DNA of 64,000 nucleotides, from assembly GCF_003790525.1 (NCBI RefSeq), contig NZ_CP033635.1, one strand, 5' to 3'. Below are positions 46,672 to 47,937 of the stretch, one piece after another; within the stretch, counting starts at the first letter, position 1; every line of letters begins with the position of its first letter. The notes below the pieces were generated by a model that was not told where the DNA came from, made no database searches, and saw nothing but the letters and a program-made list of their open reading frames with translations. The DNA comes from Escherichia coli (GTDB lineage Bacteria; Pseudomonadota; Gammaproteobacteria; Enterobacterales; Enterobacteriaceae). Made by a program: the position numbers and the translations under genes.

Positions 46672-47778
46672 ATGAAAAATTTAACAGTGGCACTTTCTGC
46701 TGTAGCAGCATCAGTATTTCTGGCAACGTCTTCAAATGCAGCAGAAATATACAATAAAGATGCAAACAAAGTGGATTTATACGGTAAAGCAGTTGGTTTA
46801 CATTATTTTTCTTCTGATAAGGACCAAAACGGAGATCAGACTTACGCACGCCTTGGATTCAGAGGTGAAACCCAAATAAATAATTATATTACTGGTTTTG
46901 GTCAGTGGGAATATAATTTCCAGGGGAACAACCCTGAAGGGGATGGAGCTCAAACTGGAAACAAGACTCGCCTGGCATACGCTGGTCTGAAGCTTGCAGA
47001 TGCTGGCTCTCTTGACTATGGTCGTAACTACGGCGTGGTGTACGACGCATTAAGCTACACTGACGTCTTCCCGGAGTTTGGACCTACCACAGCGCAAAAG
47101 GATAACTTCTTCGTTGGTCGTGTAGGCGGTGTTGCCACATACCGCAACACTGACTTTTTTGGACTGGTCGATGGGCTTAGCTTTGCAATTCAGTATCTGG
47201 GAAAAAATGAACGCAAGGATAAACCAGATACTTCAAACGGAGAGGGTGTAGGTGGCTCTGTCAGCTATGAATATGAAGGATTTGGTTTTGTCGCAGCATA
47301 CGGCGCTGCTGATCGTACTAAAAATCAGAAAAAGGCTGAGCTTGGTAAAGGGAAAAAAGCTGAACAGTGGGCCACCGGGGTAAAATATGACGCAAATAAT
47401 CTGTACCTGGCTGCCAGTTATGGTGAAACAAATAATACCCGTGCAATATCGTATGGTGATAATATTTCAGGAGTGGCGAATAAAACCGAAGATTTCACTG
47501 TTGTGGCACAATACCAGTTCGACTTTGGATTACGCCCGTCTCTTGCTTATACCCACTCTAAAGCAAAAAACCTTTCATCCAGTACTGATATTAGTAAAAA
47601 ACATGATGACGGATATATTGAAAAATTCGTTGAAGTAGGGGCTTCTTATTACTTCAACAAAAATATGTCTACATACATAGATTACAAAATCAATATGCTC
47701 GATAAAAATAAATTCACTGAAAGAACAGGAGTATCAACCGACGATATTGTCGCTGTTGGTCTGGTTTATCAGTTCTGA
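46672..47778 (+). CDS. prophage-encoded general porin (OmpC/OmpF/NmpC/Lc family)
   Basis: 368-aa; signal peptide then [24 protein letters not shown]...GLVYQF; conserved porin blocks and C-terminal Phe. Confidence 0.85.
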
Positions 47779-47910
47779 TTTATTCTGTAAGAATATGCCG
47801 GGGGAGTGAGAACTTTTCTGGCATATAAAGTGGTGCCCTCATGCCACTGCAAAACGTTGGACAGTACTTAACTTTTCCAACGAACTTTCTGTTATTTATT
47901 AACCTTTTTG

Positions 47911-47937
47911 GTTTTTATACTTGGGCGCTTTGCGCCC
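47911..47937 (+). terminator. intrinsic terminator downstream of porin gene
   Basis: GGGCGC-ttt-GCGCCC perfect hairpin followed by attttttatttt. Confidence 0.5.

Follow-up and report, generated by a model that had tools for sequence, protein, structure and literature searches.

Porins set the permeability of the outer membrane to nutrients, bile and antibiotics, and serve as receptors for many phages and colicins. Among the porins carried by lambdoid phages, NmpC of prophage DLP12 and Lc of phage PA-2 are the closest described systems to the locus reported here, and Lc of PA-2 is classically explained as a means of managing porin-type receptors. The nmpC promoter is activated by CRP (PMC11677980), and the NmpC moron of prophage Perceval was expressed 10-fold over background in LF82 lysogens (PMC9928086). 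A further described system is the activation of promoters by the insertion sequence IS5 (bgl, glpFK, flhDC, fucAO), for which the activating orientation at glpFK, flhDC and fucAO places the 3' end of the element next to the promoter and the transposase promoter distally (PMC2753651, PMC11894529). A porin gene at positions 46672..47778 (+ strand) of a 64,000-nucleotide stretch of Escherichia coli contig NZ_CP033635.1 (RefSeq assembly GCF_003790525.1), hereafter the window, was analysed against this background. We consider it likely that the gene encodes a working lysogenic-conversion porin of the OmpF branch, which is under CRP control, is insulated by a terminator of its own, is probably silenced in antisense upon induction, and alters permeability as well as the display of porin receptors. 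Phage porins, mosaic porins and effects of the IS5 type have all been described before, and to that extent the points made here are incremental; what is new is a porin moron of a phage whose barrel is of the OmpF clade, with a putative CRP promoter and an upstream ISKpn26, and which is unnamed and uncharacterised in databases.

The open reading frame (ORF) is uninterrupted over 368 codons plus TGA and ends in the residues VGLVYQF. Against Pfam Porin_1 (PF00267) the protein scored 420 bits (cut-off 23.7), with residues 29-368 matching profile positions 1-337 of 337, in agreement with the initial annotation, which had called a full-length 368-residue porin ending in Phe. A Shine-Dalgarno sequence, AGAGGA, lies at 46660..46665 (+), 6 nt 5' of the ATG, and a signal peptide of 23 residues (46672..46740, +) is predicted by alignment with the OmpF, OmpC and PhoE cleavage site, with cleavage between SNA and AEIYNK. 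The gene, a member of the PHROG porin family phrog_410, occupies the Q-to-lysis slot of a lambdoid prophage in the opposite orientation to the late genes, again as previously proposed, and this layout recurs in all the related loci. On one side of it the Q antiterminator of the 82/QuuD type (47957..48379, -; PF06530 180 bits, phrog_79) defines a late operon antisense to the porin, and on the other the holin (phrog_1350; 44032..44304), the endolysin (42841..43374) and the Rz spanin (42383..42859) are all encoded on the - strand.

NmpC of DLP12 and Lc of PA-2 share with this locus the Q-lysis slot, the antisense orientation, a porin-sense terminator abutting the Q stop codon and a 3' spacer that is partly alignable. 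NmpC is also alike in its signal peptide (83% nucleotide identity over codons 1-25), in a C-terminus with the 'FT' insertion in loop L8 and in having a CRP input (PMC11677980), which is putative for the present porin. An intact NmpC/Lc orthologue acting like Lc of phage PA-2 would account for the slot, orientation and terminator position, for the NmpC-like signal peptide and C-terminus and for the membership of phrog_410, but we regard it as very improbable. The earlier description of a full-length prophage general porin with its own terminator, laid out like DLP12 nmpC, stands; the assignment to the NmpC/Lc type does not, as the core of the protein belongs to the OmpF clade. Alignment gave an identity of 63.5% to restored K-12 NmpC and 59.8% to OmpC, below the 69.6% to OmpF, with PhoE at 53.7%. 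NCBIfam scores followed with OmpF best (542 bits), then OmpC (463) and PhoE (418), and the 21 best solved structures found in a PDB search were OmpF proteins.

A neighbour-joining tree of the core (residues 24-285) grouped the porin with the GF60 allele (P0002, 79% amino acid identity) and with a protein from outside E. coli (P0003) as a trio with 100% support. The trio fell inside the OmpF clade with 99.5% bootstrap, as a separate long branch, and apart from OmpC, PhoE and NmpC-like sequences. Upstream of the gene, homology to nmpC is limited to a block of 36-86 nt (77-89% identity) at 400-480 nt 5' of the ATG. Among 50,697 records of sequenced phages the porin was absent at both the DNA and the protein level, the best phage porin reaching about 63% amino acid identity, and nmpC-type DNA is present in 2465-3533 of 5426 complete E. 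coli genomes versus 4 for this porin, which makes the present type about 600-900 times rarer. Strict NmpC/Lc orthology was thus ruled out by identity, tree and promoter, in libraries without the sequence of Lc of PA-2.

The closest homologue is chromosomal OmpF, which has the same eyelet charges and fold and is 75% identical over the core. The porin nevertheless did not reach the OmpF equivalog cut-off (NF007446, 583 bits), and because it groups with OmpF but shares a long branch of its own with GF60 and P0003, it was classed as an OmpF-clade paralogue and not as an orthologue. Synonymous sites are saturated against K-12 ompF (proportion of synonymous differences, pS, 0.80) and the GC content at third codon positions (GC3) is 34% versus 49% for ompF, so the core was not recently copied from the host gene; a recent capture of E. 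coli ompF was ruled out on these two grounds together with the lack of megablast similarity. Unlike ompF, the gene lies in a prophage and not between asnS and aspC, has no homology to the ompF promoter and pairs weakly with MicF.

At both ends the protein departs from OmpF. Residues 1-23 are closer to NmpC (70% identity) than to OmpF (29%), residues 24-285 closer to OmpF (75%) than to NmpC (61%), and residues 321-368 again closer to NmpC (81%) than to OmpF (69%). The three-residue L8 insertion ('FT') is shared with NmpC and OmpC and absent from OmpF and PhoE. The DNA follows the same pattern, with 83% identity to nmpC versus 45% to ompF over codons 1-25, and 84% versus 63% over codons 325-349. 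In the signal-peptide codons the synonymous divergence (dS) is 0.26 to nmpC, to which it is saturated elsewhere, and 0 to the GF60 allele. An OmpF-branch barrel combined with an NmpC-like signal peptide, last strand, L8 and 3' flank makes a mosaic that points to recombination among porin paralogues.

A perfect CRP palindrome, TGTGA-N6-TCACA (TGTGATAGTGGTCACA), lies at 46547..46562 (+) and starts 125 nt 5' of the ATG. It is the one match in the window, where 0.12 would be expected, and it was found at an identical distance from the ATG in each of the 15 loci that encode a porin of this type, the distant locus of P0003 (L023) among them. Between it and the gene, a candidate sigma-70 promoter (+) was read from the sequence, with a -35 hexamer TTGTAT (46591-46596), a 17-nt spacer and a -10 hexamer TAAATT (46614-46619); it is treated as putative throughout because its score is under the cut-off applied by the consensus scanner. 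Both hexamers and the Shine-Dalgarno sequence, there as GAGGAT, are kept in L023, despite upstream DNA that has otherwise diverged. Were transcription to start about 7 nt after the -10 hexamer (near 46626), the centre of the CRP site would be at about -71.5, a class I position.

Homology with prophages of a different lysis cassette (TUM1886, L015) starts 475 bp 5' of the ATG, which marks the left edge of the porin module. No similarity to the DNA upstream of ompF or ompC was found, and over the roughly 390 nt nearest the ATG none to that upstream of nmpC either. What is shared with nmpC on this side comprises the first 30 coding nucleotides and an 86-nt block (77% identity) at the module edge, about 400-480 nt 5' of the ATG, of which a 36-nt part about 450 nt 5' of the ATG is 88.9% identical. 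Unlike NmpC, the porin therefore has an essentially unrelated promoter region, and its CRP input would be analogous to that of PnmpC, not homologous. MicF was also considered as a regulator and set aside, the duplex predicted with the porin 5' region being weak (-11 kcal/mol versus -27 for ompF).

On the other side of the gene, the GGGCGC/GCGCCC hairpin with a T-run noted by the initial annotation was recovered as an intrinsic terminator of the porin transcript (47922..47948, +), correctly placed there, with a 7-bp stem of which 6 pairs are GC, a TTT loop and a T-run. The hairpin TGGGCGC-TTT-GCGCCCA occupies 47922-47938, with TTTTTTATTT after it; it was called by the terminator scan on the + strand only, and its fold (-15.6 kcal/mol, z = -3.6) was matched by none of 200 shuffles. 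It starts 143 nt past the porin stop and ends 7 nt short of the Q stop codon. A porin-sense hairpin with a T-run adjoins the Q stop at the equivalent place in both DLP12 and ev243, which makes the position of the terminator a conserved design feature.

The 143-nt spacer between porin and terminator (47779..47921), which would form the 3' untranslated region of the porin transcript, is partly alignable with the DLP12 quuD-nmpC spacer and is the presumed late promoter region on the - strand. It holds a palindrome, ATATGCC(N20)GGCATAT, just 3' of the porin stop (47793-47826) and a conserved block at 47827-47849. In the GF60 allele the palindrome reads ATATGTC...GACATAT, a compensatory change. A consensus scan of the - strand of the spacer for the late promoter PR' gave nothing convincing, and none could be assigned from the conserved blocks or the palindrome. 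At the palindrome spot DLP12 has a longer GC hairpin with a T-run on the late strand, resembling the tR' type, of which the copy in the window is a weaker version.

The GF60 allele (L003) was used to assess selection. Its flanks are 98.7% identical to those of the window over 1.2 kb, its coding DNA is 84% identical (dS 0.70), and no synonymous change is found in the 23 signal-peptide codons, a pattern that indicates allele replacement within a conserved frame, with a 5' breakpoint probably near codon 24-30. The ratio of non-synonymous to synonymous divergence (dN/dS) against this allele comes to 0.19 for the whole protein, 0.10 for the barrel and 0.36 for the surface loops. Values of 0.19 and 0.10 at a dS of 0.70 reflect long-term purifying selection, which is relaxed or diversifying at the cell surface.

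These values bear on the view that the gene is silent or decaying AT-rich cargo, held off by H-NS and without a role in the lysogen, for which the IS would be a neutral hit. The low GC content of the gene (41.6%) and of the upstream DNA (24-33%) fits this view, as do the rarity of the gene, the presence of an IS in the regulatory region and the inactivation of K-12 nmpC by IS5 without known cost (PMC11677980). In strain LH50-c, moreover, the copy (L001 6149-7255) is 99.7% identical and carries GAA->TAA at codon 25, the first mature residue, and is listed as a pseudogene in RefSeq. We nonetheless hold silent cargo to be unlikely. Besides the dN/dS of 0.19 (barrel 0.10) at a dS of 0.70, conservation extends to the promoter, the CRP site and the terminator, a natural lysogen expresses a moron of the NmpC type (PMC9928086), and the contig collection indexes the exact 368-residue sequence (AYW30934.1, named only 'porin') in 101 blocks or more, on several prophage backbones.

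The protein itself would be a Sec-exported general-diffusion porin, with a barrel of 16 strands in the AlphaFold2 model (predicted local distance difference test, pLDDT, 69; predicted template-modelling score, pTM, 0.69), in which loop L3 is of low confidence. The top Foldseek matches of the model were all OmpF (1opf, TM-score 0.81/0.87). The eyelet residues K16, R42, R82, R132, D113 and E117 (OmpF numbering) are all kept. At the tip of L3, the otherwise near-invariant PEFGGD, present in NmpC, is PEFGPT in the porin (G120P, D121T) and likewise in the GF60 allele, and the net charge of L3 is -1 versus -4 in OmpF. Loop L1 is shorter than in OmpF, L7 is longer by a 7-residue insertion found in no K-12 porin, and L8 is NmpC-like. 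Together with L5 and L6, L1 and L7 are the most diverged parts of the porin.

Loop divergence of this kind would also be expected if the porin served in phage defence or receptor management, by displacing or down-regulating OmpC and OmpF or by acting as a decoy for porin-dependent phages, those of its own kind included. This account, which is compatible with a role in permeability, we rate as possible but doubtful. The exclusion of OmpC-dependent phages suggested by the initial annotation would be an extension from Lc of PA-2. Besides the diverged loops and the unique L7 insertion, it draws on the central tail fibre J of the prophage (21721..25626), whose C-terminal 322 residues (21724-22689, -) scored 379 bits against an OmpC-bound J (PDB 9wca/9wcb, 'A8 gpJ 713') and 313 bits against the LamB-binding J of lambda; from this match, the prophage itself may adsorb to a porin. 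The match is partial, however, and does not establish the receptor, and divergence of the loops is equally expected from immune or colicin pressure.

Upstream of the promoter the window differs from all related loci. An ISKpn26 element of the IS5 family (1196 bp; 45328..46523, +), not mentioned in the initial annotation, has inverted repeats GGAAGGTGCGAA... at both ends and is bounded by a target-site duplication, TTAG, at 45324..45327 (left copy) and 46524..46527 (right copy). Terminal inverted repeats of the 16-bp type, a DDE transposase (45396..46376, +; NCBIfam IS5 NF033581, 367 bits) and a 4-bp YTAR duplication are those of the IS5 family. The element, present as a single copy in the window, is 99.9% identical to annotated ISKpn26 copies on plasmids of Klebsiella, E. 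coli and Shigella, and shows 107 differences from K-12 IS5 (91% identity). The empty site is seen in L001 (strain LH50-c), and ISKpn26 was found at this site in none of the 14 related loci. It leaves 144 nt (46528-46671) before the porin ATG and ends 20 bp 5' of the CRP site, and it separates that site from an AT-rich tract (45180..45327, 23.6% GC) which in loci without the insertion borders the CRP site and is here 1.2 kb away. The claim that the gene is intact, unlike K-12 nmpC, accordingly applies to the ORF and not to the locus: an IS5-family element lies upstream of the promoter here and in the 3' coding end there.

Since the transposase runs in the direction of the porin, the 3' end of ISKpn26 faces the porin promoter, an orientation that matches the documented activating IS5 insertions. 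The likeness to IS5 activation at bgl, glpFK, flhDC and fucAO includes the YTAR site, the AT-rich DNA, a putative CRP-dependent promoter downstream, the co-directional transposase and the proximal 3' end (PMC2753651, PMC11894529). The insertion might accordingly be adaptive, with the porin switched on or up through separation from a silencer, through a bent, IHF-binding 3' end or through read-through from the transposase promoter. The position between the CRP site and the 23.6% GC tract, the activating orientation, the A-tracts kept in the 3' end, the lack of any predicted + strand terminator from the transposase stop to the porin, and the uniqueness of the insertion to this strain among the 15 loci compared would all suit such an effect. 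We think it improbable even so. Unlike the activating IS5 insertions, the element is ISKpn26, which is more diverged in the 3' 'IB' region, differing from IS5 IB at many positions with the IHF core not obviously kept, and it may leave expression unchanged or lower it. Any action in phase with the promoter would depend on where transcription starts, one insertion by itself is equally compatible with a neutral or damaging hit, and IS5-family elements favour AT-rich YTAR sites in any case (PMC5493358). As a separate observation, the element lies between the late-operon tRNA genes and the porin promoter and thereby lengthens the presumed late transcript by 1.2 kb, upstream of the lysis genes.

Taken as a functional OmpF-branch moron, the porin could act in the following way. 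The lambdoid prophage would carry it with its own promoter and terminator, and the lysogen would transcribe it under sugar starvation from the CRP-dependent sigma-70 promoter, the transcript ending at the terminator just short of entering Q in antisense. After induction, Q-modified late transcription would run antisense through the gene and shut it off. The lysogen would thus gain an extra OmpF-like channel with a less acidic eyelet and diverged surface loops, and with it a changed permeability and a changed display of porin-type phage and colicin receptors. In this strain, the ISKpn26 insertion would keep the core promoter and take away the AT-rich upstream DNA.

Several points weigh against this interpretation. 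Expression of the porin is a prediction from sequence; the promoter hexamers are weak and were missed by the consensus promoter scan, and the transcription start is guessed. The AT-richness of the gene and its upstream DNA makes silencing by H-NS plausible, and the nonsense codon 25 of the LH50-c relative argues that the gene is dispensable. ISKpn26 may have removed an upstream activating sequence and not a silencer, and its 3' end differs from the tested IS5 'IB'. Late transcription crossing the porin in antisense is presumed from synteny with lambda, 82 and DLP12. Confidence in the porin model is moderate (pLDDT 69). As to the mosaic, the two porin ends pooled (only 73 columns) cluster with NmpC-like proteins at 66% bootstrap, and P0003 shares the NmpC-like ends in part, so that the exchange may have gone in either direction and may be of early or late date.

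A phage-borne channel of the OmpF type, probably outside OmpR and MicF control and responsive to cyclic AMP and CRP, could restore or alter permeability where loss of ompF or ompC is selected, for example by antibiotics, and would also change the range of adsorbing phages. The ISKpn26 insertion is in addition a natural test of promoter modulation by the IS5 family at a horizontally acquired gene.

Exchange with a host porin gene was met in a second locus. P0008 (L020 5001-6074; GCA_002416955.1, NXJC01000030.1) encodes an in-frame fusion of NmpC(1-~112) to OmpF(~115-357). From about residue 16 on, the NmpC part agrees at 100% with K-12 NmpC, and the OmpF part is likewise 100% identical to OmpF. 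Its 5' side holds prophage genes for holin, lysozyme, Rz, Bor and Nu1, and its 3' side the chromosomal genes aspC-ycbL-ycbK-ldtD-mukB; by its composition it is evidently a recombination junction of prophage nmpC and host ompF. Two diverged alleles within near-identical flanks, together with the nmpC::ompF fusion, suggest that prophage porin genes recombine both among themselves and with porin genes of the host. Beyond this we propose, tentatively, that the Q-lysis porin slot may be an exchangeable cassette, in which the 5' end (signal peptide) and the 3' end (last strand and spacer) would serve as recombination handles for barrels of NmpC type, OmpF type and host ompF, and by which phages would move loop and eyelet variants with their own regulation between strains and possibly between families. 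Recombinational exchange among prophage and host porin genes would, as this suggests, be an under-appreciated source of porin diversity.

The distribution of the gene was examined in the same 5426 complete E. coli genomes, where porin DNA was found at >99% in three and at 84% in one; three of these four carriers came from poultry sources (feces or chicken meat). In the contig collection its 90% cluster comprises more than 800 contigs, and in 10 of the 10 loci listed the porin is flanked by a PF06530 Q and a lysis cassette; the prophages involved carry several different kinds of replication module. A literature search for a described OmpF-like phage porin found nothing relevant.

P0003 (L023 5001-6152; GCA_946062945.1, CAMGXM010000052.1), of 383 residues and, according to the alignment used, 66-69% identical to the porin, is the one relative found outside a recognisable prophage setting. 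Its contig has 40.6% GC and carries fimbrial, PAPS-reductase, SlipAM and QueH genes, and the CRP site, -35, -10 and Shine-Dalgarno sequence of its locus stand at the same spacing as in the window. The neighbouring QueH is 83-86% identical to Providencia and Proteus proteins, which is a hint at family level. This low-GC, Providencia/Proteus-like setting, taken with the low GC of the porin gene, hints at an origin of the porin outside Escherichia.

Elsewhere in the window, TerS and TerL follow beyond the lysis genes (-), a CI-like repressor lies at 53351..54118, and side tail-fibre genes accompany J. The Rfam scan of 42000-50000 returned two tRNAs and nothing else; both are encoded on the - strand at 44720-44873 and were called as Arg(TCT) and Met/Ile(CAT). 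At this position the near-identical prophages LH50-c, GF60 and Ch1 have tRNA-Lys and tRNA-Ile, and the first tRNA differs in sequence, that is, the window carries a swapped tRNA allele.

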